From: Oscillospiraceae bacterium
GTDB taxonomy: Bacteria; Bacillota; Clostridia; Oscillospirales; Ruminococcaceae
Assembly: GCA_017427265.1 (NCBI GenBank)
Contig: JAFRTG010000031.1
Coordinates: 30,303-94,302, forward strand
Length of the DNA: 64,000 nucleotides
Direction of reading: 5' to 3'
Shown here: positions 18,270 through 61,330 of the stretch, one piece after another
Numbering within the stretch: the stretch's first letter is position 1
Layout of the letters: every line of letters begins with the position of its first letter
Notes under the pieces: generated by a model
Told to the model about the DNA's origin: nothing
What the model saw: the letters and a program-made list of their open reading frames with translations, nothing else
The model's database searches: none
Made by a program: the position numbers and the translations under genes

Positions 18270-18274
18270 GAAAA

Positions 18275-18292
18275 GTTGCTACTTGTGTCAAC
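18275..18292 (+). repeat. ICE 18-nt motif, copy 1 (exact GTTGCTACTTGTGTCAAC)
   Basis: Intergenic. The flanks make AAAAGTTG...CAACTTTT. The T flank overlaps the PIN gene stop codon. Confidence 0.9.
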
Positions 18293-18294
18293 TT

Positions 18295-18714
18295 TTATTT
18301 GTTTGACTTAAATTTCTCCAGAAAGTCCTGCGGTTCAACCGCATTGATACTGCTGTTCTCAAAATCGCTGACATTCCGAGTTACAATATATTCAGCTCCG
18401 AATTCTTTTGCACATTCCATTTGCAAACAATCTTCAAAGTCTTTGAAATCAGCGTTATTCACAGCAGAACGGAGTTTCAGCTCGTCAACCGGCACGATTG
18501 TAAATATTCTGGAAATTGTATCAAACACTGTTTTTCTTTCAGCCAGTCCGAGATTTTTCCGGAGGATATAGAACATATTTGTTACACTGTGCGCAGCAAT
18601 GCAGCCTTCAATTTCTCGATTTGCGCACAGATAGACAATTTCTCTTGCGTTCTGATAATTGTCCCGATGACTGACCCAATCAATCAGAATATTAGTATCT
18701 ACAAGTATCCTCAT
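18295..18714 (-). CDS. PIN-domain toxin (VapC-like)
   Basis: 139 aa. N-terminal ILVDTNILID, later acidic motifs DFEDC and TRNVSDF. 4-nt overlap with the upstream small ORF. Confidence 0.8.
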   Translation of the reverse strand: MRILVDTNILIDWVSHRDNYQNAREIVYLCANREIEGCIAAHSVTNMFYILRKNLGLAERKTVFDTISRIFTIVPVDELKLRSAVNNADFKDFEDCLQMECAKEFGAEYIVTRNVSDFENSSINAVEPQDFLEKFKSNK

Positions 18715-18950
18715 GCGCCGTATTTCTCCTTGAAGTATTGATCGCGTGCCGCATCTTCGTCAACAGGGAACGCGGGTATACGCTCAATCAGGCTTTCGAG
18801 CTCCTGAAACGCCAGCATGGAATCTGCATTCTCCGGCTTTTTGCTTGCTGCATCCTGCGGATAAAGGCGACCGAATATCGAAAGGAACATCAGCAGATCG
18901 CTTTCGCTCAGATGCTCCAGCAGCGAGAAAGCCATTTCTCTGGTACTCAT
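18711..18950 (-). CDS. putative antitoxin partner of the PIN protein
   Basis: 79 aa and acidic. Translationally coupled to the PIN gene. SD AAGGAG. Confidence 0.55.
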   Translation of the reverse strand: MSTREMAFSLLEHLSESDLLMFLSIFGRLYPQDAASKKPENADSMLAFQELESLIERIPAFPVDEDAARDQYFKEKYGA

Positions 18951-18978
18951 AAGATCATCTCCTTAATCTTTTCAAAAA

Positions 18979-18996
18979 GTTGCTACTTGTGTCAAC
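18979..18996 (+). repeat. ICE 18-nt motif, copy 2 (exact)
   Basis: Intergenic, about 30 nt upstream of the antitoxin-like ORF start. Confidence 0.9.
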
Positions 18997-19034
18997 TCTT
19001 GTAGTTATAGTATGTGCCAAGCTGAAAAAGAAAA

Positions 19035-19232
19035 CTAATCATTGCTTTCAGAAAGCACAAACCCCACCATCTCACGATGAAGCAGATCTAAAATCAATGC
19101 ATTCACACTCTGTCCTTGTGATGATGCAAAGGCTTTGATTCTTTCCTTTTCTCCTTTCGGAACTGTGATTGTCACGCGATCATAATGTGCATTGTTCCAG
19201 CGGTTTTTTACTTCTGCGGTCGGTTTACTCAT
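19035..19232 (-). CDS. ribbon-helix-helix (Arc/CopG-like) DNA-binding protein
   Basis: 65 aa. The pattern RVTITVPKGEKERIKAFASSQGQSVNALILDLL fits beta-alpha-alpha. SD AAGGGGTG. Confidence 0.6.
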   Translation of the reverse strand: MSKPTAEVKNRWNNAHYDRVTITVPKGEKERIKAFASSQGQSVNALILDLLHREMVGFVLSESND

Positions 19233-19253
19233 TTGATCACCCCTTTCAAGAAT

Positions 19254-19282
19254 AGTATATCACAAAAGGCATACTTTTGCAA
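19254..19282 (-). promoter_or_regulatory. promoter of the RHH gene, overlapped by an operator dyad
   Basis: On the minus strand, TTGCAA-17 nt-TATACT. The dyad GGCATACTT-TTGC-AAGTATGCC (19268-19289) covers the -35. Confidence 0.55.
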
Positions 19283-19340
19283 GTATGCCATGCGCACAAA
19301 TATTGCGCGGTATTTCTCTTGATATTCTACATTTTGGATA

Positions 19341-19369
19341 TTGACATACTTTCGCAAGTATGCTATAAT
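19341..19369 (+). promoter_or_regulatory. perfect consensus promoter with a second operator dyad in the spacer
   Basis: TTGACA-17 nt-TATAAT. The dyad ACATACTT-TCGC-AAGTATGC (19344-19363) lies inside it. Confidence 0.65.
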
Positions 19370-19417
19370 AATATTATAGGGAAAGCACGACCCCAAAACG
19401 CAAAGGAGGACGATACT

Positions 19418-19654
19418 ATGACAGGACTTCTCACACGCGGACAGGATGCACAGATCATGAAGTACATCCCGAAATCTAAGCGGCACACGATTGAATCGTG
19501 CTGGAAGGATTCGGACGGCTACTGGATCACGCTCAAGGACGGATTCAATGCCGGTCGCATGGATAACGGCGGATGCCACACAATTCACGAGGACACAATC
19601 GCCGAGCTGCGGTATCAGATCGCCGGTATTGAAGTTGACCGGTACGCGGAATGA
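19418..19654 (+). CDS. hypothetical protein
   Basis: 78 aa from the ATG 8 nt after AGGAGG. Confidence 0.6.
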   Translation: MTGLLTRGQDAQIMKYIPKSKRHTIESCWKDSDGYWITLKDGFNAGRMDNGGCHTIHEDTIAELRYQIAGIEVDRYAE

Positions 19655-20872: not shown

Positions 20873-21958
20873 ATGGGACGAAAGAAAGGCGTGCTTTTTG
20901 TTTCTTCCAAAAACGCATATAGAGCTGTGATTACTTATCAAGGGAAAGATTATCAGCTCAGGCAATCAAAGAATATTGATGACTGCATCGCTATTCGCAA
21001 GGAAGCAGAAACCGCGATTGAGAACGGAAACTTTCTGGAATGGTACGAAAATCAACGACAAACAGCTCGGAGGAAGTCAGATTTGACAGGCAAACGATTT
21101 GGAATGTTAACCGTTATCGGAAGATCGGACACAAGAGTGCAGTATTGGATATGTCAATGTGACTGCGGCAAGACCAAAGAATTCAATGGGAGCAAATTGC
21201 GCAAGGGATTTGCGACATCATGCGGCTGTGATCGTAAAGCAGCAATGATGATAGGGCGAACATCCGGAAAACTGACTGTATTGCGCGAATCAGATCAACG
21301 GAAAGGGTATTGGCTCTGTCAATGCGAATGCGGAAATACAAAAGAGGTCAGGGAGAATTACCTTCGCAGTGGTCTAATCAAATCCTGCGGTTGCCTTCGC
21401 AGAAAATGGAAACATAATCCTCGCACACGAAAAAGGGGCGAGATTCCACGAACGAAAAACCGAATCTATTATGAGGGCGAAACGAAACCGAACGGAACAA
21501 CCGCAACCGGCGTTTCTACTCACAGCACAGGCTTTAAGATTCAATATCTCCGTGAACGCCGGAATAAGACGGCAGAAGATTTATGCAAGTATTGCAATGT
21601 AACAAGAGCTGCTGTTAATCATTGGGAACAAAACAGAAGATTCCCCGATGATAAAACCTTACAGACCATTGCTGACGCATTGAAGGTCGATGTTGCAGCA
21701 CTACTGGAACGAAACATCCGCAGTATTGTCGATGTAATCCACATTCTGTTTGAAATTGCAGAGGACGGCAGTATTGTTCCGGATGCTGACGGTATCCGAA
21801 TTACAAACGATATATTGCGCGATGCACTCGCACAATGGTATGACAAACATGAGCAATGGAAATCCGGACAGATCACCAATGAAGAATACTATGATTGGCA
21901 GGATGCGTACACGATTGCAGACCTGTCTGAAAAAGAAAAAATGGAGGAAGAAAAATGA
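20873..21958 (+). CDS. DNA-binding protein: duplicated Cys-rich (zinc-ribbon-like) modules plus an Xre-type HTH
   Basis: 361 aa. YWICQCDCGKTKE...SCGC and YWLCQCECGNTKE...SCGC repeats. HTH segment TAEDLCKYCNVTRAAVNHWEQ. SD GGAGGTG. Confidence 0.7.
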   Translation: MGRKKGVLFVSSKNAYRAVITYQGKDYQLRQSKNIDDCIAIRKEAETAIENGNFLEWYENQRQTARRKSDLTGKRFGMLTVIGRSDTRVQYWICQCDCGKTKEFNGSKLRKGFATSCGCDRKAAMMIGRTSGKLTVLRESDQRKGYWLCQCECGNTKEVRENYLRSGLIKSCGCLRRKWKHNPRTRKRGEIPRTKNRIYYEGETKPNGTTATGVSTHSTGFKIQYLRERRNKTAEDLCKYCNVTRAAVNHWEQNRRFPDDKTLQTIADALKVDVAALLERNIRSIVDVIHILFEIAEDGSIVPDADGIRITNDILRDALAQWYDKHEQWKSGQITNEEYYDWQDAYTIADLSEKEKMEEEK

Positions 21959-22857: not shown

Positions 22858-22862
22858 AACAA

Positions 22863-27521: not shown

Positions 27522-30500
27522 TTACATTCGCGGCGCGACCGGCGGCAGCGTTTCGCTGTCCGTGTTCGGATTCAGATCGTTGTTGTCATCGTCATCATCG
27601 GTCTTAAAGAAACTTTCACGCGCTGTCCGTTCAGCATCGGTTTCTTCAACCGGCACTTCATCCGGATCAAGAATTGCCGCTTCCATTTCTGTAATGCCGA
27701 GAAGTTCTGCTTCGACCTTTTCCAATTCCGCCTGTGCATCCGCAAGCTCTTGTTCGTGCGGAAATGTCTGTTCAGCGCGTTCCGCAGCCTGAACCATATC
27801 CGCTTCCAGCTTTTCAATTCTGCTTTCGCATTTCGATTTTTCATTCGGAACACCGTTGCCTAGCAGATTCATGAGTCGCTGTGCATTGTCGCTCTTTTCG
27901 TTGAATTCAGCCGCTGCGCGATACGCGACCGGACTCTCACCCTGAACGACAAAGGCGAAGTCCTGCTGCGAACCGTTCATCTGAATCGTCACAGAAAAAT
28001 CTCCGATCTGGAATGCGGGGAGATCGTCAAACGGATTTTTCTGTTTCTGATACAGCAAACTGTGCAGATATTGATTGATGTCCTCACGCTTTGTCAGCGT
28101 TTTGCCCATCGCTGTCCTGACAGTCAGACCGTCGATCTTGCCTTCCGGATTTCTCATTCGGTCAACCGCTACAATGTCTTTCTCAATATCGGTGATGCGT
28201 TCGCGGAGTGAAGCGATCTCACTCGGAATGGTTGCGATCTTGCTGCGCATCTCTCCGGTTTCACGCTGGAATTCTGCTTTTGCAAATTGCAACTCGGAAA
28301 TTTTCATGCCTAGCTCGATACGCTTCCGGAAATTCGGATTGCCCTCTGCCGCAGCTTGCATCTCGCCGTAAGTGAGAACCTTATCGTCACAATCTTCGGA
28401 CACACGAGCCGGTGTTTCATCATCAAGAAGCTGCGCGATGAATCTTGCCTTGTCCGTAACAATCTGATACAGATAGCTGTCCATTGTGCCTTGCGTGATG
28501 TAATTGAAAATCTGAACCTCGCTGAATGTGTTGCCTTGACGAAGTATTCTTCCTTCGCGTTGTTCCAGATCGCTTGGCTTCCACGGCACATCGACATGAT
28601 GCACTGCGGCAAGACGCTCCTGAACATTCGCGCCTGTTCCCAGCGTACCGGTTGATGCAATGACAACACGATATTTACCCGCGTTAATATCACGGAAAAT
28701 ATCTTCACGGTTTTTCGCTTCGGACTTCGGCGCATAAATGATTTCGTCTGCTGGAATCCCTTTTGCAATCAGTTCCTTGCGGATGTAGTCGTAAACAGAG
28801 AAGTTTCCGTCATCGGAATTGACAGCCACATCGGAGAAGATGATCTGTACGCCTTTCTGTTCTGTTGTTTCCGCGTAAATCTCTGCGACCTTATCCACGC
28901 ACGCATCGACCTTACTCGTCTTTGCATCCTCAAAGCCCTCCGGCACTTCGAGCTGGTGCTTTCTCATCAGAGCAGCGACGGCAGAATTGCAAAGACCGGT
29001 CAAACGCGCTTCACTTGTAATGACGAGCATATTGTCGTTACGCGGATCGACTCTGCCTTCGGAAATTAGCCGTGCTCGTTCGACGAGCATCTTGACGAAA
29101 TCTTTTTGCTCCGGAGATGCTTGCACAGTAACAATTTGCGGCTTGCCGGTCTTGAGCTTCGGACGCGGAAGATCGAGCTTTTTTGCAGACTGAATGTCCG
29201 CAAACTCTTTATACATCTGCATCAGTTCCGGAAGATTTGCAAACTTTGCAAAGGTTGTTTTCAGTTTCAGCTCACCGGTCGCACTTTGCTTATGCTGTGT
29301 GGTGACTTTTCCGAATGTCGCTGCCCAATCGTCAAAGCGTTCGACTCCCGCAGCAGCCAGCAAATCGGGACGGAGATAGCGGAGCATGACATAGAGTTCC
29401 GTCATCGAATTACTGACGGGCGTTCCCGTACAAAAAAGCAGATGACCTTGACCAAGTTGTTCGTTGAAGTAGTCACATTTCATTTGCATATCCTGCGCTC
29501 TGCCGGATGCGGAAGTTGTTACGCCGGAAACATTGCCCATTTTCGTTTGAACGAAGCCGTTTTTGAAATTGTGTGCCTCGTCAACAACAAGGTAATCAAA
29601 GCCGAGCTGTTCAAAGTCAAGCAGAATGTCTTTGCCTTTCTGTTTCGACTTCGGATTCATGATACTGTCAAGACGAGCTTTCAGTTTTTTCTTTGCACCC
29701 TCGATCTGTTTTGTTGTCGCGTCTTTCCGATTGCCGTTTGCATTTCGCGTTTCGCGGAGCATATCTTCCAACTCATCGAGCTGCCTTAACAGATACGCTT
29801 TCTGAAATTCCAACGACATGGGCATCTTTTCAAACTGTTCCATTGAAACGATAACCGCATCATAATCGCCGGTAGCGACACGAGCTGCAAACTGATCGCG
29901 CTTTGCTTCGGACGAGAGATCAGCCGCCGACATGGTCAGCAATCTTGCATCCGGATAGAGCTTTCTCCATTCACGCGCCGTCTGTTCGACCAGCGGCTTC
30001 GGAACGACCACGCAAGCCTTGTTAATCAGACCGAGCTGCTTTTTCTTCATGACCGCTGTCTGGAATACAGCGGACTTTCCTGCGCCGACAACATGAGCTG
30101 CCAGCGTATTGCCGCCGTATACCGCACGCGCAACACAGTCACGCTGATGCGGACGGAGAGAGAATGATGCAGATTGTCCGTCGAATGTCAGATGTGAACC
30201 GTCATACTTGCGACCAACCAGCGAATTGAACAGATCGTTATATCTGCGTTCGTATTTCGCTCTCCGCGCCGGATCAGCAAAAATCCATTCCGCAAACTTT
30301 TCTTCGATCAGCTTCGCTTTCTCCATTGCTTTTTTCGTTTCGACCGGATCGGTGCGTGTAACTGTTTTACTTGCGTCTTTCGGTGAAGGCACGGTCATCA
30401 TGACAGCAATGCGCCGCTGGTTCAGGAGCTTCTGCGCGATCTCATACATTGTCAATTTGTCTGTTCCGTATGTTGTCCCTTCGTTCACATTGATGTCCTT

Positions 30501-42104: not shown

Positions 42105-42105
42105 A

Positions 42106-46066: not shown

Positions 46067-46588
46067 TTATTCCTCCGTATTCTGTGTTCCGGTCTGATCG
46101 CCGGTCTGAATTGAAGTGGTGCTGCCGATATTTGCATTTGCCGGTTGTGCAGCACGCTCTCTTTTCCGTCCCGCTTCTGCGCGGATGATCTTTGTCAGCT
46201 CGTCAATGTCAATGTCATCCAGATCACCGTCAAGCTCCTGCACAATATCCAGAGCTTTCATAACCTGATCTTCTGTCATGTGTTTGGACTTCATTCGGAA
46301 AGCATCGCGCATTTTACGCTCTGTTTCTTCCTGTTGAAGCTGCTTGACAAGTGCAGTCATTGACCGAATTTCCGGTTTCAGCGCGGCAATTTCCTTTTTC
46401 AGCACAGCAAGCTGTTCCGTTTTCTTGTCCATATCAGCTTGCATACGCTTCAGCGCAGTCTGTGCAGATTTCAGCGAATACCGTTTTGGTTTTTCGGATT
46501 CATCCGGAAAGTTGACACTTGTGTCAACTTCGTCTGTTTCCGTAATATCCGGTTCAGCGGGTACAACAGGCTTCAAATACTCATCCAT
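46067..46588 (-). CDS. hypothetical coiled-coil protein
   Basis: 173 aa. Contains motif copy 6. Overlaps the upstream gene end by 8 nt. Confidence 0.6.
   Translation of the reverse strand: MDEYLKPVVPAEPDITETDEVDTSVNFPDESEKPKRYSLKSAQTALKRMQADMDKKTEQLAVLKKEIAALKPEIRSMTALVKQLQQEETERKMRDAFRMKSKHMTEDQVMKALDIVQELDGDLDDIDIDELTKIIRAEAGRKRERAAQPANANIGSTTSIQTGDQTGTQNTEE
46511..46528 (+). repeat. ICE 18-nt motif, copy 6 (palindromic variant GTTGACACTTGTGTCAAC)
   Basis: Inside the 173-aa ORF, read as VDTSVN. Confidence 0.8.
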
Positions 46589-51030: not shown

Positions 51031-53508
51031 TTATGTGTGCTGCTCTCCGAATTTCGTCGAAATGATCTTATATATCTTCGTATCAGACGGGAATCGTGCG
51101 TCGAATGGGATTGTTCCGTATGCACCAGCGTATATTAGTCCGCTGCCGCTTGGCGGATTGTTGACATACTGCATCGTATCCGGCGAGATGTGCAGCAGAT
51201 CGGAAAGTTGTTCGCGGTCAGTCGTATTTTGCGCCAGCATAACGACAAACTGCGTATTCGAGAGCATTGTTCTTGCGAGCTGTGAACGAAGCAAATCATC
51301 CACATTCTGCGTGATGCCGGTCGGAATACCGCCCCATTTTCTCGCACGCTTGTAAAGCTCATAGAAGAAGTTTGCTGACTGTTCGGATTTGAACAAAAGA
51401 TACATCTCGTCGATATATATGCGCGTGCCGATACCGCGTGCGCGGTTCTTTGCCACTCTGTCCCACAGGTTTTCCAGCACGATCATCATGCCGAGCGTTT
51501 GCAGATTCTTTCCAAGCTCTTTAATGTCATAGACCACGATGCGCTTATTGATATTCACATTGGATTCATTCGCAAAAACGCTCATGCTGCCATGCACATA
51601 CAAATGCAAGGTCTGACGGAGATATGTCACAGCACTCTTTGTTTCGTCCGGAGCTTCCTTCTCGTACAGTTCCAATTCTGCGTAGTATTCCTTCAAAGTC
51701 GGTTTTTCATATTTGTTGTAAGTGTTGTGCATGACCGTATCAATGATCGTTTTCTGAATCGGGCTGATTTCCTGATTGCCCATGATGCAGGAGAAGAATG
51801 AAAGCAGGAAGTCCAGCTTCGCCGTGATCGGATTGTATTCCTTATCGTCTTTATCCGGATTCTCCGTCAAGTCAAGAGGATTGATGTGAGTCTTGGAATT
51901 CTCGGAAATGTAGATTACCTCACCGCCTAGCAATTCTGCCAGCGCGGTATATTCCCGTTCGGGATCGAGGATTAGGATTTCATCCGTTGTGGCAAGGATT
52001 GAAAAAATCATTTCCAGCTTTGCAAGGAAGCTCTTGCCGCTTCCGGGCACGCCGAAAATAAAGCCGTTCGGATTGGCAAGCTGTCTGCGATCAAACATAA
52101 TGATGCTGTGCGCAAGCTGATTCTCGCCATAATACAAGCCACCCTTATGCAGCAGTTCACGCGCATTGAACGGCATGAAAACCGCCGTACTCGCAGTTGA
52201 CATGGTACGGCGCACTTGCAAATTGTTTTCAGTGTCACAGGAATTGCTGTTTCCGACCGGCAATGCCGAAGCAAATGCGACCTCCTGACGGTACGGCGCA
52301 TTCATGGATTCAATCTGATTTGTACGAAGAATCGTCTGGATTGTTTCCGTTGCACTTTGCAATTCATCGTAAGAATCCGCAGTCAGCATAATAATCCATT
52401 GGCAAAATGTCATCTTCTGATTCTTGCTTTCAAGACTTTCAATGAATTCAGCGGTTTCCTCCATGCTCTTTTCAAGTGCAGTACCCTTGACCGGATCGAC
52501 AAATGCGCCCTTTGCTGCATCAGATGCCTTTTTGGTCTTTGTAATTGCTTCCTGATTCATGTCAGTCTGCTTATGCCGAAGCATCTTGATTGCGTCAGCC
52601 TGTTCGACAAACTCGATGTTTTCCGTGATAATCATGGAGAGATTCGTTTCAAGCAGTTCCTTGAACAGCGAATCCTTCATTTCAATCGAAGGAAGTTTTC
52701 GGAAATACAGGCATCGTGCAAATTTTGCGTTATACATGAAATAGTCACGCTTAAACTCGAAATACTCCGGACAGCAAAGCTGTTTTTCTGCTTTCCGTTC
52801 AAATTCCTGCCGAGTAATCGGTTCAAGTTCTTCATTGGCATCATAGAGAATGTCTGTCATAAGACGGACGCGGTCATTTGCTGTCATCGGGATAGGCTGT
52901 GTACCGATCTGTGTCAGGCAGCTTCTCAGGTGAAGTTCGATATTAAAGAATTTTTCGTTCGCGGCTTCGAGAGAAATTGCCGTTGTTGTCACCGTGAAAT
53001 ACTTTTTGCATTGCAGACCGTTCTGACCGTTCATGATCTTGTCGTGCATGATTCCGTTAAATTCATGCCGTTCTTCATCAAGACCGTCACTCATATCTTT
53101 CAGCAGCAGCCGTTCGCTGAATTCATCCCTGTTGATCTGACTGTTTACGAGCGATACTTGCAGAGAAACCGTGCTGTCAAAGCCATTCAAAAGTGTCATA
53201 TACACACCGAAGATTTCTTCCTGCTGTTCCCGCGTCAGCGCAGAATAGTTAATATCCGGCACGAGATACGATTTTGAATAGAGATTCATTGTTTCTCTGC
53301 CAACGCGGACACCGCTGCGCAGGAGCATGACATGATTACTGACAAACTTTTCATACGGCAGGGTATCCATTACCGTCCGCTTCACTTTTCGCTTTGACTT
53401 TGTTTTCTTCTGTTTGGACTGCTTTTTCTGTTCTGCTTCACGAATTTTGTCGAGATCGCGTGCTGACGGAGCATCTGTACTGTTCTTCTTTTTGCTGAAA
53501 AGTCCCAT
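51031..53508 (-). CDS. VirB4-family conjugative ATPase
   Basis: 825 aa from the ATG after AGGAG. Walker A GVPGSGKS, Walker B RIYIDEMY. Confidence 0.88.
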   Translation of the reverse strand: MGLFSKKKNSTDAPSARDLDKIREAEQKKQSKQKKTKSKRKVKRTVMDTLPYEKFVSNHVMLLRSGVRVGRETMNLYSKSYLVPDINYSALTREQQEEIFGVYMTLLNGFDSTVSLQVSLVNSQINRDEFSERLLLKDMSDGLDEERHEFNGIMHDKIMNGQNGLQCKKYFTVTTTAISLEAANEKFFNIELHLRSCLTQIGTQPIPMTANDRVRLMTDILYDANEELEPITRQEFERKAEKQLCCPEYFEFKRDYFMYNAKFARCLYFRKLPSIEMKDSLFKELLETNLSMIITENIEFVEQADAIKMLRHKQTDMNQEAITKTKKASDAAKGAFVDPVKGTALEKSMEETAEFIESLESKNQKMTFCQWIIMLTADSYDELQSATETIQTILRTNQIESMNAPYRQEVAFASALPVGNSNSCDTENNLQVRRTMSTASTAVFMPFNARELLHKGGLYYGENQLAHSIIMFDRRQLANPNGFIFGVPGSGKSFLAKLEMIFSILATTDEILILDPEREYTALAELLGGEVIYISENSKTHINPLDLTENPDKDDKEYNPITAKLDFLLSFFSCIMGNQEISPIQKTIIDTVMHNTYNKYEKPTLKEYYAELELYEKEAPDETKSAVTYLRQTLHLYVHGSMSVFANESNVNINKRIVVYDIKELGKNLQTLGMMIVLENLWDRVAKNRARGIGTRIYIDEMYLLFKSEQSANFFYELYKRARKWGGIPTGITQNVDDLLRSQLARTMLSNTQFVVMLAQNTTDREQLSDLLHISPDTMQYVNNPPSGSGLIYAGAYGTIPFDARFPSDTKIYKIISTKFGEQHT

Positions 53509-53510
53509 GT

Positions 53511-53903
53511 TCACTCACTCCTTTCCTCATATTCTCCGCTTGCGATTCGCTGCTGTACGATTTCTTCTTCAATCTGCATATTTCGCAGAATCAGACCGCA
53601 GTTTTCTTCGGTATTTTCAAATACCCGTTTCTGCGGCAGAAATGTAAAACGGAGCATTGACTTTGCGTATTCCTCAAATCGCATATCCTGAAATGTTACA
53701 AACCCCCATGCGAGAATCGGGGCTGAAATAATAATAATTGCCCACATAAGAATATCCGTTGAAATGTAATTCCGACCGAACACACCAAGCGGGACACCGA
53801 TCAAAATTGCCAGACCGAGAGAAATAACCTGTCTGACCGATAAACCGGCAATCAGCTTCGATTTATATGCGCGAATCTCTGCGGGGATTTTTTGTTCGAG
53901 CAT
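53511..53903 (-). CDS. PrgI/TcpE-family (VirB3-like) membrane protein
   Basis: 130 aa from ATG 53903 after GGAGGTG. Two adjacent TM helices. Directly precedes virB4. Confidence 0.75.
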   Translation of the reverse strand: MLEQKIPAEIRAYKSKLIAGLSVRQVISLGLAILIGVPLGVFGRNYISTDILMWAIIIISAPILAWGFVTFQDMRFEEYAKSMLRFTFLPQKRVFENTEENCGLILRNMQIEEEIVQQRIASGEYEERSE

Positions 53904-53921
53904 TTGCTTCACCTCCAAAAA

Positions 53922-53939
53922 GTTGCTACTTGTGTCAAC
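53922..53939 (+). repeat. ICE 18-nt motif, copy 7 (exact)
   Basis: Intergenic, between the VirB6-like stop codon and the SD of the PrgI-like gene. Confidence 0.9.
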
Positions 53940-53940
53940 T

Positions 53941-55116
53941 CTAGCTTGTGCCGCATATTCGCTTTGCCCACGCTCCGGACTTAATGACACCCAAGCCGAG
54001 CGAGATCAGAGCGATAAACTGCATCATTTTCGTGTGATTCAGTCCGTTTGCGCCGGATGCAATGTAGCTCGTAACACCGACATATACAACAAACATACAG
54101 ACAATCACACCGATCTGGATGACCGTTGCGATATAATTCTTGAGAAAGCTCTTTGCAACATCTGTTGTCGTATCAGATGCAAAGGTAGCAATGGGCAGCG
54201 GGGCAAAAATGGTATAGACTGCCAGCTCGAAGATACGACCAATCGCAATGACAAAGATAATGTATGCTATCGCTTTCATAACAAGAAAATATGGTTGCCA
54301 GAACAGAATTTCCAGCGTCGGCGTAAACGAAAGCATTGTTGTCGGATTACCAAAGGGATGTGCTTCAAAGTTGTATACCGTTCCGGACGGAAATGTGGCA
54401 TTCGGGTAAAACATCTTCACAGCGTCCTGCGATATTTCATAGGTAAAGGGATGACGAAGGTTGCTTGCACCGACATTCTCCCAAAAGCGAATCCAGCCCT
54501 GATACCAGTGATCGGCTTGAAACACATCCTGCAAAAGACCTTCCTCGACATTGATTGTATATGTTACACGGTGTCCAGCCGGCAAGAAGTTTGGAACAGC
54601 ACCGGCACGATTCAGAGTTGAAAACGCGCTGTAAATATGACCGATAATCACATCTGCATTCTGCACGACCTGTTTCACAACGACGATCTTGATTAAGAAT
54701 ATCAGCACATTTTCCCATTTACTAGACCACTCGAAATTTACGGTCTTGCGAAAGAAATCGACCATCAAGAGCAGCACCGCAACAATCAGAGCAAGTGATC
54801 TGCTTGCGCTGATAATTCCGGACGCAACGCCGGTTGATGTACTCATGTTTATGACTGTATACGGAGATACTTGCGAAAACTGAAACGCTTTTTGCAGCAC
54901 TTCATTCGCTTCATCGACATTTTCTGTGATCGTTACATAAACATCCTGAATGTCGTTATTGAAAATATCTGTTCCTGCGTAGGCAACTACCGGAAAAAAG
55001 ATATTCATGAGTCCCGCGATAATCACAAACAGATATATATTTCTCCGAATCTTCTCAAATTTGCTCATCGGCGGCTTTACGCGATGCTTCCGGAGCGTCG
55101 GAGCTTTTATTCGCAT
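53941..55116 (-). CDS. VirB6-like polytopic T4SS membrane protein
   Basis: 391 aa from the ATG after GAGGGGGGTG. At least 6 TM segments. Position between the pilin-like and PrgI-like genes. Confidence 0.7.
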   Translation of the reverse strand: MRIKAPTLRKHRVKPPMSKFEKIRRNIYLFVIIAGLMNIFFPVVAYAGTDIFNNDIQDVYVTITENVDEANEVLQKAFQFSQVSPYTVINMSTSTGVASGIISASRSLALIVAVLLLMVDFFRKTVNFEWSSKWENVLIFLIKIVVVKQVVQNADVIIGHIYSAFSTLNRAGAVPNFLPAGHRVTYTINVEEGLLQDVFQADHWYQGWIRFWENVGASNLRHPFTYEISQDAVKMFYPNATFPSGTVYNFEAHPFGNPTTMLSFTPTLEILFWQPYFLVMKAIAYIIFVIAIGRIFELAVYTIFAPLPIATFASDTTTDVAKSFLKNYIATVIQIGVIVCMFVVYVGVTSYIASGANGLNHTKMMQFIALISLGLGVIKSGAWAKRICGTS

Positions 55117-55130
55117 CTGAATCACCCCCC

Positions 55131-55616
55131 TCACGAAACGAAAAGCGGCAGAAGCGCGGATACCGACATACAAATAGCACCCGCTGCAAATGTTTTCAAA
55201 CCGTTGATTTTATTACCGGCATTTTCATCTTTAATCGCAAAGCCGAACATTGTCGCGCCGATCAATGCAGCAAGCGCACCAACGCGCCGTGTCCATCTGC
55301 CGATGAATGTCATAATAGCTGTAAAAATAGTTGTCGCATTCCCTGCTGTCAATGAGAAAAAGCCCATGTTCCGGACTGCTGAAATTATCATGAAGCCGGA
55401 AACCATGACAAGTGCCGCCTGAATCTGCTCCCGTGCATCATCAGCTTTGATTGACAGCGCAAACTTAATTGCGCCGATAAATGCAACCATACCGCCGATC
55501 CGTGCAATCCACAGGCTAAAAAAGTCTATACCGGTCTGTGCAAGCTGTGCCGGTGTTCCGGCAGGAGGAGCCGGTAAGATTGCGGCAATCGTCATCATCA
55601 TTTGCGATAATACCAT
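55131..55616 (-). CDS. tandem-duplicated Maff2/VirB2-like small membrane protein
   Basis: 161 aa from the ATG after AGGAGG. Two internal repeats (WIARIGGMVAFIGAIKFALSIKADD / IGRWTRRVGALAALIGATMFGFAIKDEN), each like the neighbouring 112-aa protein. Confidence 0.65.
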   Translation of the reverse strand: MVLSQMMMTIAAILPAPPAGTPAQLAQTGIDFFSLWIARIGGMVAFIGAIKFALSIKADDAREQIQAALVMVSGFMIISAVRNMGFFSLTAGNATTIFTAIMTFIGRWTRRVGALAALIGATMFGFAIKDENAGNKINGLKTFAAGAICMSVSALLPLFVS

Positions 55617-55639
55617 AATACCTCCTGTTCTGAAAAGTG

Positions 55640-55672
55640 TGCTGCCCCTGACGGGCAGGGGCAGCAGCACAA
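55640..55672 (-). terminator. weak terminator/attenuator between the pilin-like paralogues
   Basis: On the minus strand, GCTGCCCCTG-CCCGT-CAGGGGCAGC followed by ACACTTTTC. Confidence 0.45.
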
Positions 55673-55720
55673 AGTAAGGAAATAGGGAATATCGGGAAAA
55701 TCGGGAAAGGACTCTGCTGA

Positions 55721-56059
55721 TTAGCCGAACAGGTTGAACATCGAGGAAGCTGCGCACAGTGCCGCAACAACAAAACCAGCAACCATTGTAATCAGACCGG
55801 ACTGCTTGCGCTCTGCATCATCATTCTTGATTGCGAGGGCGAACATAATGCCGCCAACGAAAGCGACCATCATACCAACGCGGCGAATCCATGTGATGAA
55901 GAATTCAATAGTGGACCGGTATGCTGCTTCAGCACCAGTACCACCGCCGCCACCACCGGCAGCAGATGCAACAACGGTGCAGACTGCCATCATCAGGGCA
56001 GCGGCTGCGACGGACACAAAGAGCTTCGCGCCCTTGTTTTTCTTCGTAGAAAGTTTCAT
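55721..56059 (-). CDS. Maff2/VirB2-like small membrane protein with signal peptide
   Basis: 112 aa. Signal-like N-terminus, Gly run, two TM helices around AIKNDDAERK. Confidence 0.65.
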   Translation of the reverse strand: MKLSTKKNKGAKLFVSVAAAALMMAVCTVVASAAGGGGGGTGAEAAYRSTIEFFITWIRRVGMMVAFVGGIMFALAIKNDDAERKQSGLITMVAGFVVAALCAASSMFNLFG

Positions 56060-56080
56060 GAGAATACCTCTCTTTCATAA

Positions 56081-58888
56081 TCAGGACATGATTGATTCCA
56101 TGTCATCGTCATACAAAGCATCATCGGAGATCAATGTGCTTGTTCGCGGATAGTGCGGGGATGTTTCTGTTGTGACAGACACAGCAGCTTCAATGCTGTC
56201 AACAGTCAGCTCAGCTTCGGCAAGCGGTTCTTCATCGGGGATGCCGTAATGCTGTGTGTCATCTGGTTCTGTCACGGGGGGAATCTCGACTTCTTCATCT
56301 GTATCACCGTCCTCTCTTTCTTTGATAGGCTCACCGAAATCATCTGATCTTAAAGGATCAGGGACGCCGAATTCCGTTTTGCCTTCACTATACTTTACTT
56401 CACCACTCGTGACCGAAATCTGCTGTTTGGTTTCTTCCAAGTAATCAGCAGCTTCTTCGTATGATGAAGGTAGTACCATATCTGCGGACACGGAAACCGT
56501 ATCTGCTTGCTTAAAGATTGTCTTGACCTTTTCAGGTTCCTTCTCCGGCTCTGTATTCGCTGTACTGCCGGTATCAGGGTTGTTACTTGTGTCAACTTTC
56601 TGGTGTTTTGCTTTCTGTTCCGCTTCAAATTCCTCGACCGTGACAGAATGTACCTTTGATACATCAAATGGCGGAAGAATATCACCGGAATCACCGAGAT
56701 ATTTATAATTCGGATGCTGTTCAATCGGGTATTTCGTACAGTAAAACGGATTGTGCGAACGAATCATGACAATACAGTCGCTGATCGGCATAGTCGAAAG
56801 CTCATTTGGCTGCATCAGTTCACGACCGAGAATGCTGTTATTCTCCGATGTGCTGGACTGTCTGCCTTTTGTGCGGTTTGTCCCGCGCACATCAATCGTT
56901 TCCTTTCCGAGCTGTTCGGAAATAGATTTCAGCGTGCTTTCTTCTTTTCCGCCGAGAAAGATCGTTGTATCGCAGTTACCGGTGATGACTTCCCATGTCT
57001 TTTCGTACCGCGCTTTGAGCTGCGCGATATTCTGAATGATAACATTCAGGCTCATACCCATAGAACGGACAAAAGCAATGACCTTGTCGAAGTCTGGAAT
57101 TTGTCCGATATTGGCGAATTCGTCCATGATGCAACGCACATGAACGGGAAGCACGCCCTTGTGTACGAAGTTCGCTCGATTTGAAAGCGTGTCAAAAAGC
57201 TGCGTATACATCATAGCAGCCATGAAGTTATAGGTTGCATCAGTTGCAGAAATGATGATGAACAGCGCGGTCTTTTCGTCACCCAGCGTTTCAAGATGAA
57301 TATTATCGCAGCAAGTGAGATTGCGCAGATTCTTCAAATTGAAAGTGAATGTATTGACATTCGCGCTGGACAGGAAGCTCTGTCCGGTTTCTTCCGGCGC
57401 ATTACGCACTTCCTTATACAAGCGAATTGCCAGCGAATCCGGCTTGCGTCTTGCCAGCTCAAGAAAGTCCTTGTCCAGATCACAAAGGAATGCTTTTGCG
57501 CGTCGTGCTTCAAAGTCAGCTTCCGATTCTCCTGCATTGGGTGAGAGGAAATAACCGTCAGGCAACTGACTTCCACGCGGCGGGTATTGCAGACGGCGCA
57601 TCTTTTCCGTGACTGAAAAGAAATTCAAATGTGATTCATCGCGGGTTTTCGGAATAATCAGACCGTTTGAATCCTTTTCTGCATTGTATTCCGATTCTTC
57701 AAACAGCAGGAAGATGATTGCTTGCAGCATTGACTGACCTTTTTTAGACCAGAAATCTTCCTTTTCTCCGTCTTTCTTTGTTGCTGAAAACAGCACATTG
57801 ACCATCTTATTGACATTATCCTCGCTGACCTGTCCGTGTTCATCGTAGACATAATGGAACGGATTGTAGTTGTTTGAATGCTCCATCTGAATCAGATTGA
57901 ATACGCGCACCTTATAACCGGCGGCGCGGAGCATTTCGCCGCAGCTTTGGAGTATTTCGCCCTTCGGATCGGTAATAACATAGCTCGTATTGAGCTGCAT
58001 AATGTTTGGCTTCGCGTAAAAGCGCGTTTTACCCGAACCGGAACCGCCGATAATCAGAACATTGAAGTTCAGCAAGTGCTGTTTTGCATTCAGGGATAGG
58101 AAAACCTCTTTTGTCAGCAGAATGTTGTTGTCCACCATAACGCCCATAAAGTTTCCGTCTTTATCGTAAACACGGTGACTGTCCGGCGATACGGCGTGAA
58201 TTGTTTGCGTCCCGTCTTTATCCGTGCTGATCTCGTCAATCACACACCGCCGACCGACACAATCCTGATCGGGATGCTCTGTGATTTTCAGTTCCATGCC
58301 GATACGCAGCTTATCAGAGTTGCTACTTGTGTCAACTTTTTCAGCTTCCGGTTCGGCATTCAATATGCGGAACGAAATGACAAGCTGCTTTTTATCGGAA
58401 ATCAGGGTATAAACCCCGTTATCGTATTTCCAGTTATCAGGTTTGCCCCATTCAGCTTGGAATTCAAAGGTATCAAATGCTTTGATCGGCTGGATTTTTC
58501 GAGGAGCCGGATCAGCAAGTTTCTTCATTTCCTTATCGTCACCCCATTTTGCTGAACCGTGTTCAGTTCCGCGACGGTGCAGCCGCTTGGCTTCGTTGCT
58601 ATACTTGTATAGAGCAAGAATGCCGATAACTGCTGCACCAAGAAACAGCATTTTCGGGATGTAGCTGTTCTTATCTGCAAGATGTTTGAATATGAAAGAG
58701 GGATGCGAAAGAATATACTGAAATCCCTTGCTCAATCGTGAAAACACGATATGACCGCTCTGATCTACCGAACAGTCCATTGCACCGCCCAGCAGGATAC
58801 AGCCGATTAAAGCAACAACGCCGATTATGCAATAGATAATCAGCGTCGTTTTGTCGATTTTCGGTTTTGGTTTCGGAGGACTCGGCAT
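56081..58888 (-). CDS. VirD4/TraG-family type IV coupling protein
   Basis: 935 aa. Two N-terminal TM helices, HGSAKWG, Walker A GGSGSGKT, long acidic C-terminal tail ending DDMESIMS. Start overlaps the upstream stop (TAATG). Confidence 0.88.
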   Translation of the reverse strand: MPSPPKPKPKIDKTTLIIYCIIGVVALIGCILLGGAMDCSVDQSGHIVFSRLSKGFQYILSHPSFIFKHLADKNSYIPKMLFLGAAVIGILALYKYSNEAKRLHRRGTEHGSAKWGDDKEMKKLADPAPRKIQPIKAFDTFEFQAEWGKPDNWKYDNGVYTLISDKKQLVISFRILNAEPEAEKVDTSSNSDKLRIGMELKITEHPDQDCVGRRCVIDEISTDKDGTQTIHAVSPDSHRVYDKDGNFMGVMVDNNILLTKEVFLSLNAKQHLLNFNVLIIGGSGSGKTRFYAKPNIMQLNTSYVITDPKGEILQSCGEMLRAAGYKVRVFNLIQMEHSNNYNPFHYVYDEHGQVSEDNVNKMVNVLFSATKKDGEKEDFWSKKGQSMLQAIIFLLFEESEYNAEKDSNGLIIPKTRDESHLNFFSVTEKMRRLQYPPRGSQLPDGYFLSPNAGESEADFEARRAKAFLCDLDKDFLELARRKPDSLAIRLYKEVRNAPEETGQSFLSSANVNTFTFNLKNLRNLTCCDNIHLETLGDEKTALFIIISATDATYNFMAAMMYTQLFDTLSNRANFVHKGVLPVHVRCIMDEFANIGQIPDFDKVIAFVRSMGMSLNVIIQNIAQLKARYEKTWEVITGNCDTTIFLGGKEESTLKSISEQLGKETIDVRGTNRTKGRQSSTSENNSILGRELMQPNELSTMPISDCIVMIRSHNPFYCTKYPIEQHPNYKYLGDSGDILPPFDVSKVHSVTVEEFEAEQKAKHQKVDTSNNPDTGSTANTEPEKEPEKVKTIFKQADTVSVSADMVLPSSYEEAADYLEETKQQISVTSGEVKYSEGKTEFGVPDPLRSDDFGEPIKEREDGDTDEEVEIPPVTEPDDTQHYGIPDEEPLAEAELTVDSIEAAVSVTTETSPHYPRTSTLISDDALYDDDMESIMS
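56579..56596 (+). repeat. ICE 18-nt motif, copy 8 (GTTGTTACTTGTGTCAAC)
   Basis: Inside the T4CP C-terminal tail, read as VDTSNN. Confidence 0.85.
58319..58336 (+). repeat. ICE 18-nt motif, copy 9 (exact)
   Basis: Inside the T4CP N-terminal insertion, read as VDTSSN. Confidence 0.9.
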
Positions 58889-61206
58889 TATCTTCTCGCC
58901 CCCATTGATTGCGGCGGAAGGTCAGGCAGCGGCATTTCGGGCAGCGGCATTTCGGGCAGCGGCGCATCAGATGCAGCGGCTGCACCGAAACCGGCGGCTG
59001 CTTCATTCAGAACATTTCCTTCCGGATGTGCTTCATGACCGTTTCCGAATGCTTCGGCAACACTTTCGGCGGCAGCTTCTTCGCTGGTTGGCACGACTTC
59101 CTCATCACCGTCAATCAGGTCAAGCACATCGTAGTTTTCCGGATGTACTTCTTTATCGGCTGCAAGATATTCGTCGTATGCTTCCTGCGATTCAAAGACC
59201 AGCACATCACCTTTAATGCCTTGTTGATCTGCAAATTCCTGTACTTTCGATACATCAGTTGTTTCAGGCAGACTGCCTGATTTATTCGCCCCGTTATAGG
59301 TTGCTGCGGAATGATTGCCGTCATCACCGTTGTAAATATACATAGTCTTTTTTGGTTCATCTGCACTGCACACGAAGATGAATTCCTGTTTGCGCTCATC
59401 CATTTGCTTCACTGCATTATTGATGTTTGTCCGTGTCTGCTGCGCGGCTTCTACACGATCTCTTGCAGTATCCTGTTTGATTTCCTCTGCTTTCTCCACG
59501 ATCACTTCGGCGGTTTCTGCCGGAACACCAAATTCCTCAGCGATTTTGCTTGCAGCCGCCTGTTTGTCGGCAGTCGATACTTCCGCAGACTGTGTGCCAT
59601 AGGCAACCGTCATAGCCTTTTCCCGTACTTCCTGAATCTGAATTGGCTTCTCCGGATTCTGCATTTCGGCTTTTTTGAATACTTCCTTTGCCATTTGCTT
59701 TGCGACATGAGCCGGTACGCCCTGCGCTTCGTACATCTCCCGAAGCTGCTGCAACGATGATTTCTTGTCTGAAAAGGAAAGGACAAGCTGCTGCTTGTCA
59801 TGTAGTTCGTGATCGACACCGTTTGCATCCGTTTCAATCGCCGTGACCGTGCTGTCAACACGAAAAAAGTCTTTTTCGGTTCTGGTAATTTCGCTGTTCA
59901 TGCTGCTGACCGGCAGCTTTCTGGAAGAAATCGTATTGCCTTCTTCATCGGTCTTGCGTAAGCCCATAGTATTCCGCACATCCGAAAGATCGAAATCGCT
60001 CTTTTTGAATGTATACTCTGCGGTATGAGCTTCACTTTGCGCATGGAAGGAGGCAATACTTTCCGCTTTGTGAATCAGCGCATCCTGCACCTTTCTGTCC
60101 GTTAAGCCGAGCTGTTCATTCAGAACATTACGCATCTGCCGCCGTGTCATCTTCTCCGGTTCAAGCACGGCAAATTCGCCGTTGTCGTTCTGGAATACAA
60201 TACGCGGTCTTTCGTCAGCCTTCGGTGTCACGCGCCAGCACTGATATTCCTTGCAGACGGAATCCTCGCCCTCGACCATGATGTTCGCATCGACCTGTTT
60301 GAATTCCTGCTGTGCGCTGTCCGAGAAGAATTTTGCTTTTTGATCGCCGGTCAGCATTTCCTCACCGAATCGTGCAGCAGCGATTTTTGATTGAATATCA
60401 TCGTAACCGAATGCCTTTTGCATATTCTCCGCCAGTGTTTTCTTATCCGGAATCTCGTCAAAGGAAATCTCCTTGCCTGTTTTCAGGTTTTTGATTGTAA
60501 TGAATCCCGCTTCATCCCGATCAAATGCAAGATTGCTCTTGACTTCGCTGCACTGTCGGACAAATGTATCTCTGGTAAGTTCAATCGCCTTACGGTCTTT
60601 CTTTTCAAAGACGCAAAGGTTCTTCCCGTCACTTGTCTGGATGAATTGTGCGGAAAGATCATTTTTGTTCAGATGTGCGGTCAGGAACGGAATCTCCCAT
60701 GCTTCGCAATGGAAATTCCCCAGCTCCTGCGGACGCTCTGCAATCTTCGATTTCATCAGCTCCGTGCAAATCTGCTTGAACAGCGGCAAATCAGCGGTAC
60801 GGACGCTTGCAAAGATATTATCCTTGCTTCTTTCGTTAGAAAACGCAACCGGAATGCCGTATGCCTTTGCTTTCTTTGCGATAAACTTCATATCCTCTTT
60901 TGTCAGCGCATTTTCTGACATAGACAGCGTATCGCCGATAGCTTTTGCATTGTCCCGCAGCGTTTTCATCTCGACGCGACCGGTCTTAATATCCGTTAGA
61001 TCGGTGCTTTTCACTTCGGGAGTATGCTCGTTCGCATTCGCTCGTGTCTGATTATTGGAATTGTTGCCGCGATCTCGGCTGCGCCCCAGCTCGGCGAATA
61101 ACCGCATCAGAGCATCAAACAGTTCCTTCGCAGCGTGTGCTGCAACATCTGCGCCCTTCTGGACGATTTGTAGGGTAACGCCAGTTACATCATCGGACAT
61201 ATTCAT
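58888..61206 (-). CDS. PcfB/DUF3801-like protein with a long C-terminal extension
   Basis: About 772 aa. ATG 61206 is 8 nt after AAAGGAGG (the track start 61212 is too close to the SD). The N-terminal 130 aa resemble PcfB (from memory), and the gene sits directly upstream of the T4CP as in pCF10. C-terminal PLPEM repeats. Confidence 0.65.
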   Translation of the reverse strand: MNMSDDVTGVTLQIVQKGADVAAHAAKELFDALMRLFAELGRSRDRGNNSNNQTRANANEHTPEVKSTDLTDIKTGRVEMKTLRDNAKAIGDTLSMSENALTKEDMKFIAKKAKAYGIPVAFSNERSKDNIFASVRTADLPLFKQICTELMKSKIAERPQELGNFHCEAWEIPFLTAHLNKNDLSAQFIQTSDGKNLCVFEKKDRKAIELTRDTFVRQCSEVKSNLAFDRDEAGFITIKNLKTGKEISFDEIPDKKTLAENMQKAFGYDDIQSKIAAARFGEEMLTGDQKAKFFSDSAQQEFKQVDANIMVEGEDSVCKEYQCWRVTPKADERPRIVFQNDNGEFAVLEPEKMTRRQMRNVLNEQLGLTDRKVQDALIHKAESIASFHAQSEAHTAEYTFKKSDFDLSDVRNTMGLRKTDEEGNTISSRKLPVSSMNSEITRTEKDFFRVDSTVTAIETDANGVDHELHDKQQLVLSFSDKKSSLQQLREMYEAQGVPAHVAKQMAKEVFKKAEMQNPEKPIQIQEVREKAMTVAYGTQSAEVSTADKQAAASKIAEEFGVPAETAEVIVEKAEEIKQDTARDRVEAAQQTRTNINNAVKQMDERKQEFIFVCSADEPKKTMYIYNGDDGNHSAATYNGANKSGSLPETTDVSKVQEFADQQGIKGDVLVFESQEAYDEYLAADKEVHPENYDVLDLIDGDEEVVPTSEEAAAESVAEAFGNGHEAHPEGNVLNEAAAGFGAAAASDAPLPEMPLPEMPLPDLPPQSMGARR

Positions 61207-61239
61207 TTGCATTTCCTCCTTTGTTTTTCAGCAGGGTAT

Positions 61240-61275
61240 AAGAAAAGCTCCGGTAAGGAATACCAGAGCTTTCTT
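61240..61275 (-). terminator. intrinsic terminator after the lipoprotein gene
   Basis: On the minus strand, AAGCTCTGG-N9-CCGGAGCTT followed by TTCTTAT. Confidence 0.5.
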
Positions 61276-61297
61276 TCACATATTCAGTTTTCGGAAA

Positions 61298-61315
61298 GTT
61301 GACACAAGTAGCAAC
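61298..61315 (-). repeat. ICE 18-nt motif, copy 10 (exact, the only inverted copy)
   Basis: Intergenic, between the lipoprotein stop and its terminator. Confidence 0.9.
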
Positions 61316-61330
61316 TTTTCTGAAAAGGAA

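Follow-up and report, generated by a model that had tools for sequence, protein, structure and literature searches.

What is the role of an 18-bp dyad that recurs throughout a conjugative element, between genes as well as in frame within them? The question was raised by a 64-kb stretch of the genome of an Oscillospiraceae bacterium (64,000 nucleotides of contig JAFRTG010000031.1, positions 30,303 to 94,302; hereafter the window), which carries an integrative and conjugative element (ICE). An earlier note on this DNA had likened the dyads to dispersed operator or centromere-like sites such as the KorB operators (OB) of plasmid RK2, and this is the reading we favour. Judged from sequence, a structural model and analogy, the dyads are probably parS/OB-like sites for the ParB-type CTPase of the ICE, tolerated in coding DNA where it specifies disordered linkers. 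The element has a parA, a helix-turn-helix (HTH) gene and a parB side by side, its ParB has the family fold, parB itself holds two of the sites, and site variants track ParB clades; binding by ParB is what we infer from these observations.

Copies of the dyad

The window contained six exact and four variant copies of the word GTTGCTACTTGTGTCAAC, at the positions given in the earlier note. Exact copies were present on the plus strand at 18275, 18979, 37716, 53922 and 58319, and on the minus strand at 61298. The copy at 56579 had one mismatch, and that at 46511 had two and formed a perfect 8-2-8 palindrome. The copies at 33408 and 33657 had four mismatches (ATTGACATTTGTGTCAAC); their common core, TTGTGTCAAC, was found nowhere else in the window. 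Such repetition is beyond chance, as the note had argued: a window scan with up to three mismatches to GTTGCTACTTGTGTCAAC returned eight matches versus 0.05 expected, and the degenerate dyad RTTGNNAYAWRTNNCAAY returned precisely the ten copies versus 0.02 expected. All ten were located to the right of tRNA-Trp, within the ICE.

Since the element genes run on the minus strand, the coding-sense word is GTTGACACAAGTAGCAAC, which can be written as two halves (GTTGACAC-AA-GTAGCAAC, 18 bp). The extended consensus derived from the sites had the general form GTTGnnAyA-wrTnnCAAC, usually with an A-rich and a T-rich side. Further details of the note were borne out: identical flanks of 27–30 nt were shared by copies 2 and 7 and by copies 5 and 9, the four intergenic copies were placed at gene junctions, and all six intragenic copies lay on the sense strand in the frame GTT GAC ACA, encoding (K/E)VDT(S/N)(S/V)N. 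The count of ten is correct for the window, but the element has 12 copies, eight of them exact, as two more exact copies were present in parB beyond the right end of the window. This part of the ICE was read from L045, a stretch of a 70-kb public contig that was located via the last complete protein of the window and was 99.99% identical to window positions 52515–64000. The sites, with the strand of the coding-sense word, are as follows.

Site 1: 18275–18292, minus strand, exact (sense GTTGACACAAGTAGCAAC); intergenic, 2 nt past the stop of the PIN toxin gene and ahead of a bidirectional terminator
Site 2: 18979–18996, minus strand, exact; intergenic, ~12 nt upstream of the Shine-Dalgarno (SD) sequence of a gene for a 79-amino acid (aa) antitoxin-like protein
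Site 3: 33408–33425, minus strand, variant (sense GTTGACACAAATGTCAAT); in frame in the giant 4188-aa open reading frame (ORF), aa 2222–2227, before DUF6908
Site 4: 33657–33674, minus strand, same variant as site 3 (GTTGACACAAATGTCAAT); in frame in the giant ORF, aa 2139–2144
Site 5: 37716–37733, minus strand, exact; in frame in the giant ORF, aa 786–791, in the linker between MuF_C and YodL
Site 6: 46511–46528, minus strand, perfect palindrome GTTGACACAAGTGTCAAC; in frame, aa 21–26 of a 173-aa coiled-coil ORF
Site 7: 53922–53939, minus strand, exact; fills the junction between the genes for the VirB6-like protein and PrgI, 1 nt from the TAG stop, with the GGAGG SD sequence 5 nt on
Site 8: 56579–56596, minus strand, one mismatch (sense GTTGACACAAGTAACAAC); in frame, aa 765–770 in the C-terminal tail of the type IV coupling protein (T4CP)
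Site 9: 58319–58336, minus strand, exact; in frame, aa 185–190 in the N-terminal region of the T4CP
Site 10: 61298–61315, plus strand, exact, the sole copy in opposite orientation; intergenic, between the stop of a 395-aa ORF and a terminator-like hairpin
Sites 11 and 12: ~64003–64020 and ~64366–64383, in parB, exact; at aa 228 and aa 349, seen on L045 past the window end

Distribution and conservation in related elements

In 596 Gb of species-representative genomes, the exact 18-mer was found in 13 stretches, with ~17 expected by chance for a word of this length. Three of these (Bacteroidaceae, Chloracidobacterium and Pseudorhodobacter) had no A/T flanks and look like chance matches. The other ten were contigs of Oscillospiraceae, Ruminococcus or Clostridia metagenome-assembled genomes (MAGs), nine of which matched the window at 62–89% nucleotide identity. 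A metagenome scan added 29 further stretches of mixed kind, and a scan of viral contigs with the DNA word returned two matches without A/T flanks, probably by chance. The strict pattern had no matches in 1.05 Mb of control phage loci; these were ~79 distant phage ParB-like loci from a ParB profile scan of viral contigs and served as a negative control only. The same profile scan yielded a single true relative, L056, which has a site just behind its HTH. A search of a plasmid collection with ParB returned only homologues of 34–38% identity on pCP13-like and P. sordellii plasmids, and no comparable dyad was found around the parB of pBCNF5603. A full-text literature search with four sequence forms of the dyad found no paper.

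The dyad had been called element-specific. This holds with respect to the host chromosome: as the earlier note had stated, there was no copy in the 17.5 kb of chromosome to the left of the element (nor anywhere in window 1–18000). In the related locus L049, all 14 sites fell within 12 kb of ICE sequence, and the adjoining 9 kb of chromosome had none. It does not hold among mobile elements, as the dyad is common to a family of related ICEs.

In relatives of ~70–75% identity, four placements of the site were retained: the VirB6/PrgI junction, the T4CP tail, the 173-aa ORF and the position behind the 395-aa ORF, where the orientation is likewise reversed. Orthologous sites were identical at 14–18 of 18 positions, versus 67–86% identity in the flanks. 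All 18 positions were conserved at site 2 in L023 (flanks 86%), site 6 in L007 (69%), site 7 in L042 and L020 (72%) and site 10 in L028 and L042, where place and orientation were kept as well (75%); site 8 was conserved at 15 of 18 positions (67%). The VirB6/PrgI junction also held a site in L047 (in flipped orientation), in L051 and, as a variant, in L052.

Tandem arrays were observed in two relatives. In a giant-ORF homologue of a Clostridia MAG (L012, 4312–4896), ten tandem copies with a period of 63 bp encoded a 21-aa repeat (EKVDTSSNFSENDSAQKEKPT); with a period equal to six helical turns, this array looks centromere-like though coding. In a bovine metagenome (L052, 5209–5460), parB contained the perfect palindrome GTGCTACATGTAGCAC four times, with three copies spaced by 57 bp and the last lying 114 bp beyond, and the VirB6/PrgI junction of this locus held the further variant GGTGCTATATATATCACC. 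A Logan contig of 5711 bp (L046) began at most 10 nt from one dyad copy and ended exactly on another. Short-read assemblies of this ICE family evidently break at the repeat, which explains such contig ends.

Selection on DNA, peptide or RNA

Among 103 distinct sites, ~31 were intergenic, and 61 of the ~74 in long ORFs used the sense frame V-x-T-x-x-N. Of the six frames of the word, one has a stop and four read as hydrophobic or cysteine-rich; the bias is explained by (K)VDTSSN(F) being the only hydrophilic frame. The constant frame, the tandem peptide repeats and the occurrence in several proteins, in linkers that are acidic and disordered, could also mean that the peptide itself is the functional unit, a short linear motif in the linkers of transfer proteins, with the identity of the DNA secondary. 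The clade-specific sites and their peptides bear on this.

GTTGATATATATATCAAC: VDIYIN
GTTGATACAAATATCAAC: VDTNIN
GTTGCCACATATGGCAAC: VATYGN
GGTGACAGACCTGTCACC: GDRPVT
GTGCTACATGTAGCAC: ATCST
GTTGACACATGTGTCAC: VDTCVT

Dyad symmetry was present in each clade variant while the encoded peptide differed, to the point that VDIYIN, GDRPVT, ATCST and VATYGN are unrelated. About 30% of the sites are intergenic and exact, synonymous positions were conserved, and a reverse-orientation in-frame copy in the parA of L049 encoded VATCNN. Given the intergenic copies and the variants that change the peptide and preserve the dyad, a peptide function is largely refuted, and we regard it as most improbable. Many variants were perfect palindromes with a centre of 0–2 nt, and the site at the VirB6/PrgI junction of L047 was reversed. 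Because the peptide changes between clades while dyad symmetry is kept, selection, by these comparisons, acts on the symmetry of the double-stranded DNA.

A function as single-stranded hairpin was considered as well, either as RNA within the long conjugation transcript (processing, stability or translation control) or as a signal or priming site on the transferred DNA strand. The A/T flanks lengthen the dyad, nine of the ten window copies are co-oriented, several intergenic copies lie 5–15 nt upstream of an SD sequence, and the perfect palindrome at 46511 folded at −12.2 kcal/mol (z = −3.1). However, folds of the commonest form were weak (−2.6 to −5.1 kcal/mol), and z was ~0 for three of the four copies tested, so that the 8-bp RNA hairpin proposed in the earlier note was not supported. 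Besides 46511, only the flank-extended 18275 and 61298 folded better than shuffles among the six folded copies. The variable arm positions (5–6 and 13–14) were complementary in only 39 of the 103 sites, and perfect palindromes with a 0–2-nt centre cannot loop. The flipped junction site of L047 and the antisense in-frame copies in the parA of L049 also speak against a stranded signal, and the co-orientation is accounted for by co-oriented genes together with the frame constraint. A hairpin function is therefore very unlikely.

Several further candidates were rejected. An intrinsic terminator or structured RNA does not fit the weak fold and the arms complementary in so few sites, and Rfam returned nothing at the dyad sites at either gathering or E-value thresholds. 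The motif contains TTGACA, but no copy had a −10 hexamer 16–18 nt downstream as a sigma-70 promoter would require; 7–12 nt past the motif, sequences such as AAACAA, AAAAGA and CGAGAG were found, and a promoter scan gave no match at 18275 and 18979, the two sites covered. The view of the earlier note that the dyad is not a promoter, a terminator or an origin of transfer (oriT) thus agrees with the absence of a correctly spaced −10 box and the weak hairpin. Its suggestion of an uptake or transfer signal was not supported: orientation was not kept at orthologous junctions, many sites are perfect palindromes, the flanking chromosome has none, and the exact word was limited to the 13 stretches in 596 Gb.

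ParB as the candidate binder

The right end of the ICE has the gene order integrase, parA, HTH gene, parB. In this element and all relatives fetched, a gene for a 222-aa ParA/CbiA/AAA_31 protein lies upstream of parB. The N-terminal domain of the 462-aa ParB matched Pfam PF02195 (ParB_N) with 28.7 bits (cut-off 26.3), and the sequence aligned with Noc and Spo0J, with a CTP box GHRRRAA (GxxRxxA type) opposite GERRWRA of Noc. Residues G73, H74, R76, A78, A79, N115 and R119 were invariant in 54 homologues. An AlphaFold2 model (mean pLDDT 81.6) matched Noc (7nfu), ParB (6t1f), KorB (8qa9) and Spo0J (1vz0) over 185–227 aligned columns that cover both the N-terminal and the DNA-binding domain; target-normalised TM-scores were 0.6–0.69. 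Sequence and model thus identify the protein as a genuine member of the ParB-CTPase family.

The sites are tied to parB. Approximately 100 of 120 listed ParB homologues encoded at least one dyad peptide in frame, the first directly after the HTH at ~aa 228. In the ParB model, the dyad peptides coincided with the only internal low-confidence segments (residues 229–238 and 352–392), which are inter-domain linkers. Relatives with few sites (L048, L053 and L054) had all or nearly all of them in or abutting parB. Moreover, ParB clades with an altered putative recognition helix had altered palindromes.

QVGKxQN: site GTTG...CAAC
QVSKLQH: site GTTGACACACCTGTCAC, i.e. ...CCTGTCAC
QVSKLKH: site GGTGACAGACCTGTCACC, i.e. 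GGTG...CACC
QVRKIQN: site GTTGACACATGTGTCAC, i.e. ...ATGTGTCAC
QIGKMEN: site GTGCTACATGTAGCAC

We propose that ParB dimers would use their HTH domains to read the two half-sites. In analogy to ParB, KorB and BisD, CTP-dependent clamps would then close, load at the 12 sites and slide along the 51-kb element. This could help the excised element to segregate, in concert with ParA, or control the conjugation genes over long range, and the two roles may be combined. Because the element is almost wholly coding, sites would be accommodated either at gene junctions or in the single harmless, hydrophilic frame, (K)VDTSSN(F), within disordered inter-domain linkers. Identical in-frame repeats may then double as joints for the insertion and deletion of domains.

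Several observations weigh against ParB as the binder. The Pfam HTH_ParB match of the protein was sub-threshold (E = 0.0065). The co-variation of helix and site was drawn from a handful of clades, and the link between ParB and the site is correlative and in part trivial, given that parB physically contains sites. In length and geometry the site departs from canonical parS (18 bp, with GTT/AAC triplets 15 rather than 11 bp apart), and it also departs from OB. Its commonest form is asymmetric (half-sites GACAC and GCTAC), an uncommon feature in a homodimer site. There was no site directly upstream of parA in this element; in L051, a site at 9294 lay just past a TATAAT box upstream of parA, which looks like autoregulation. 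A search of a plasmid collection with ParB returned only homologues of 34–38% identity on pCP13-like and P. sordellii plasmids, and no comparable dyad was found around the parB of pBCNF5603.

In the main clade, it is possible that another protein binds: the ribbon-helix-helix (RHH) protein, one of two Xre-type HTH proteins or the HTH_36 protein. The dyad would then be the operator of a dimeric global repressor or activator, with ParB unrelated to it. Several HTH and RHH genes are present in the element, half-site centres ~10 bp apart fit any HTH dimer, and the gene for the winged HTH (wHTH) protein was kept in relatives of 70–75% identity. Some sites adjoin promoters or SD sequences, as upstream of the antitoxin gene and past the TATAAT box in L051. 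Most sites, however, have no promoter nearby. In addition, the concentration of sites in or next to parB in clades with few sites, their constant place in nearly all ParB homologues despite differing neighbours, and the shift of site variants with the ParB recognition helix count against an unrelated regulator. The HTH_3 gene between parA and parB is dispensable, as it was absent from L048–L051, L053 and L054, which keep sites; its product is an unlikely binder, since relatives with many sites lack the gene. We consider an operator of another regulator unlikely, and ParB remains the preferred candidate.

Possible recombination at the sites

Sites coincided with insertion/deletion and module boundaries, as expected of dispersed identical in-frame repeats. 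The identity of ParB homologues broke right past the motif. A 120-aa middle domain of ParB between two copies was present or absent, and its absence left one copy, as in the homologues P0024, P0025, P0027 and P0029. Site 9 is situated in a T4CP stretch of ~276 nt (58190–58481) that is absent from relatives, which at 70–76% identity jump ~15 nt in the alignment; the stretch is therefore an in-frame insertion/deletion polymorphism. Sites 1 and 2 bracket a PIN toxin-antitoxin (TA) cassette.

These boundaries, the tandem arrays with periods of 63 bp (L012) and 57 bp (L052) and the copies with common flanks of 27–30 nt would also suit a self-propagating linker or junction module without a dedicated binder, spread by recombination or gene conversion and kept for the exchange of domains and cassettes. 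Recombination alone is insufficient to explain dyad symmetry that is kept through many variants in every clade, or intergenic copies identical at 18 of 18 positions where the flanks are 72–86% identical. Neither a transposase nor a dedicated recombinase was found, and no longer element surrounded the conserved unit of only ~18–26 bp. As recombination at repeats is an expected by-product of dispersed identical sites, we see little probability in a module that lacks a binder. The sites might instead be dual-purpose, serving both for ParB docking and as standardised in-frame joints for domain and cassette swaps among ICEs, with a single word of 18–26 bp kept to one frame and to linkers or gene junctions, and with ParB at the sites perhaps promoting exchange. 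This is a speculative possibility, to which we likewise assign a low probability; if true, the motif would be a built-in grammar for the modular assembly of conjugative-element proteins that leaves reading frames unbroken.

The bracketed cassette (18295–18950) comprises the genes for the 139-aa PIN toxin and the 79-aa antitoxin-like protein, between the co-oriented exact copies at 18275 and 18979. L047 has one dyad copy after this cassette and another after the small ORF next to it.

Comparison with known systems

The closest known systems are KorB-OB on RK2 and BisD-bisS on ICEclc, and the site is neither canonical parS nor OB. KorB of RK2 is a CTP-dependent sliding clamp with long-range control (PMC11790492). 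Both KorB and the ICE protein are ParB-family CTPases of conjugative elements, each with a ParA homologue encoded next to it and about a dozen short palindromes over the whole element, some near promoters and others far. The N-terminal and DNA-binding fold is similar (8qa9, target-normalised TM-score 0.61), and the HTH gene between parA and parB recalls korA. In contrast, the site is an 18-bp GTTGnnAyAwrTnnCAAC rather than the 13-bp OB (TTTAGCSGCTAAA), the host is a Gram-positive Oscillospiraceae ICE rather than a proteobacterial plasmid, and most sites lie in frame in protein linkers. KorA is the partner that locks the KorB clamp; relatives of the ICE do not conserve the KorA-like gene. The ICE protein, known from sequence and model, also has an extra middle domain.

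BisD of the Pseudomonas element ICEclc is a ParB-like CTP clamp that loads at palindromes inside inrR and ssb, spreads over tens of kilobases and is needed for transfer competence (PMC12409273). It shares with the present system a ParB-like protein of an ICE with palindromic sites inside genes. Unlike the 12 sites here, ICEclc has two functional 23-bp bisS sites (GAGCTATCCCCnGGGGATAGCTC), and BisD has an activator domain and the partner BisC; in the element studied here the partner gene is parA, and neither BisC nor an activator domain is recognisable.

ParB (Spo0J)/parS and Noc with its binding sites (NBS) in Firmicutes resemble the system in CTP box, HTH and fold. Lin and Grossman reportedly found in 1998 that parS is repeated 8–10 times, mostly in coding sequences, with one copy inside spo0J (parB). 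The canonical 16-bp parS (TGTTNCACGTGNAACA) was not present here. Despite a resemblance of the GTT..CAC/GTG..AAC kind, identity with canonical parS was rejected on spacing: the half-site is one base longer with a 2-bp centre, which places the GTT/AAC triplets 15 versus 11 bp apart. A mobile element as carrier and a conserved reading frame and peptide are further differences from chromosomal parS.

Rickettsia palindromic elements (RPEs) are 100–150 bp long, and repetitive extragenic palindromes (REPs) are extragenic and mobilised by RAYT transposases. Like these and repeats similar to miniature inverted-repeat transposable elements (MITEs), the dyad is a short palindrome found between genes and in frame in tolerant surface or linker regions. 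However, its unit is 18–26 bp, it belongs to one ICE family and it co-varies with the ParB gene; no transposase was found among the genes of the element.

The ParB-site logic is thus already known; what is new is a many-site family of Gram-positive ICEs with sites systematically in frame in protein linkers. The regulation or organisation of whole mobile elements by ParB-type CTP clamps is a recent theme, with KorB and BisD both from Proteobacteria. Our finding suggests that Oscillospiraceae and Ruminococcus of gut and rumen host a large, uncharacterised family of ICEs built on the same logic, at high site density (12 per 51 kb here and 14 per 12 kb in a relative). Clade-specific ParB and site variants offer natural specificity-swap experiments. 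In this gene-dense element, a DNA-binding code would run alongside the protein code, confined to one frame and to disordered linkers, and would show as a recognisable hexapeptide shared by unrelated proteins. The motif is also a cheap marker to find and delimit the family in metagenomes, and flags likely recombination joints in the giant modular proteins of these elements.

Organisation of the element and further observations

The ICE spans ~50.8 kb between 27-nt attachment (att) repeats, as the repeat at the tRNA-Trp 3′ end recurs past the integrase gene. The G+C content drops from ~0.55 to ~0.47 at ~18 kb. To the right of tRNA-Trp, nearly all genes are on the minus strand and form a Firmicutes-type conjugative element. 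The gene order starts with the PIN toxin and antitoxin, the RHH protein and an Xre-type HTH protein, followed by TraX, a Mob_Pre relaxase and a DUF3991/Toprim protein. The giant ORF, with its three dyad copies in inter-domain stretches, is followed by genes for SNase, the wHTH protein, a second Xre-type protein, TopoIII and SSB, then VirB4, PrgI, the VirB6-like protein and T4CP, and last an RNase_T exonuclease. Past the window end, parB, the HTH_3 gene, parA, two small ORFs and a tyrosine integrase gene complete the element.

tRNA-Trp: about 17452–17529, plus strand (ARAGORN, Rfam)
Left att repeat: 17503–17529, plus strand, 27 nt, tRNA-Trp 3′ end, GGTTCGATTCCTTCTGCCCCTGCCATT
RHH protein: 19035–19232
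Xre-type HTH proteins: 20873–21958 and 41667–42149
Giant ORF: 27522–40088, minus strand, 4188 aa; MuF_C, YodL, DUF6908, N6-adenine methylase and SNF2/DEAD helicase domains
HTH_36 winged-helix protein: 40895–41647
parB 3′ end: 63676–64000, minus strand, last 107 codons; the gene runs off the window
Right att repeat: L045 2900–2926, ~window 68263–68289; direct repeat of the tRNA-Trp 3′ end, beside the tyrosine integrase gene

Directly outside the right att repeat, HipA_C-like kinase genes (L045 430–2651) belong to the host chromosome rather than to the element. At the left end, window positions 17860–18270 were non-coding and conserved, with 76–86% identity in at least five related loci, and relatives have a dyad copy directly after this region. 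It contains a perfect sigma-70 promoter on the plus strand (17976–18004), a convergent perfect promoter on the minus strand (18156–18128) and terminators at 18178–18201 and 18225–18268. The plus-strand transcript of ~260 nt folded at −110 kcal/mol (z = −9.3), and no Rfam family matched at threshold. The region may be a small RNA, an antisense pair or a type I TA-like locus. At the boundary of the RHH gene (19229–19370), a perfect sigma-70 promoter on the plus strand (19341–19369) opposes a 9/12 match on the minus strand (19282–19254), with hairpins at 19268–19309; this may be a divergent regulatory region of the left end of the element.

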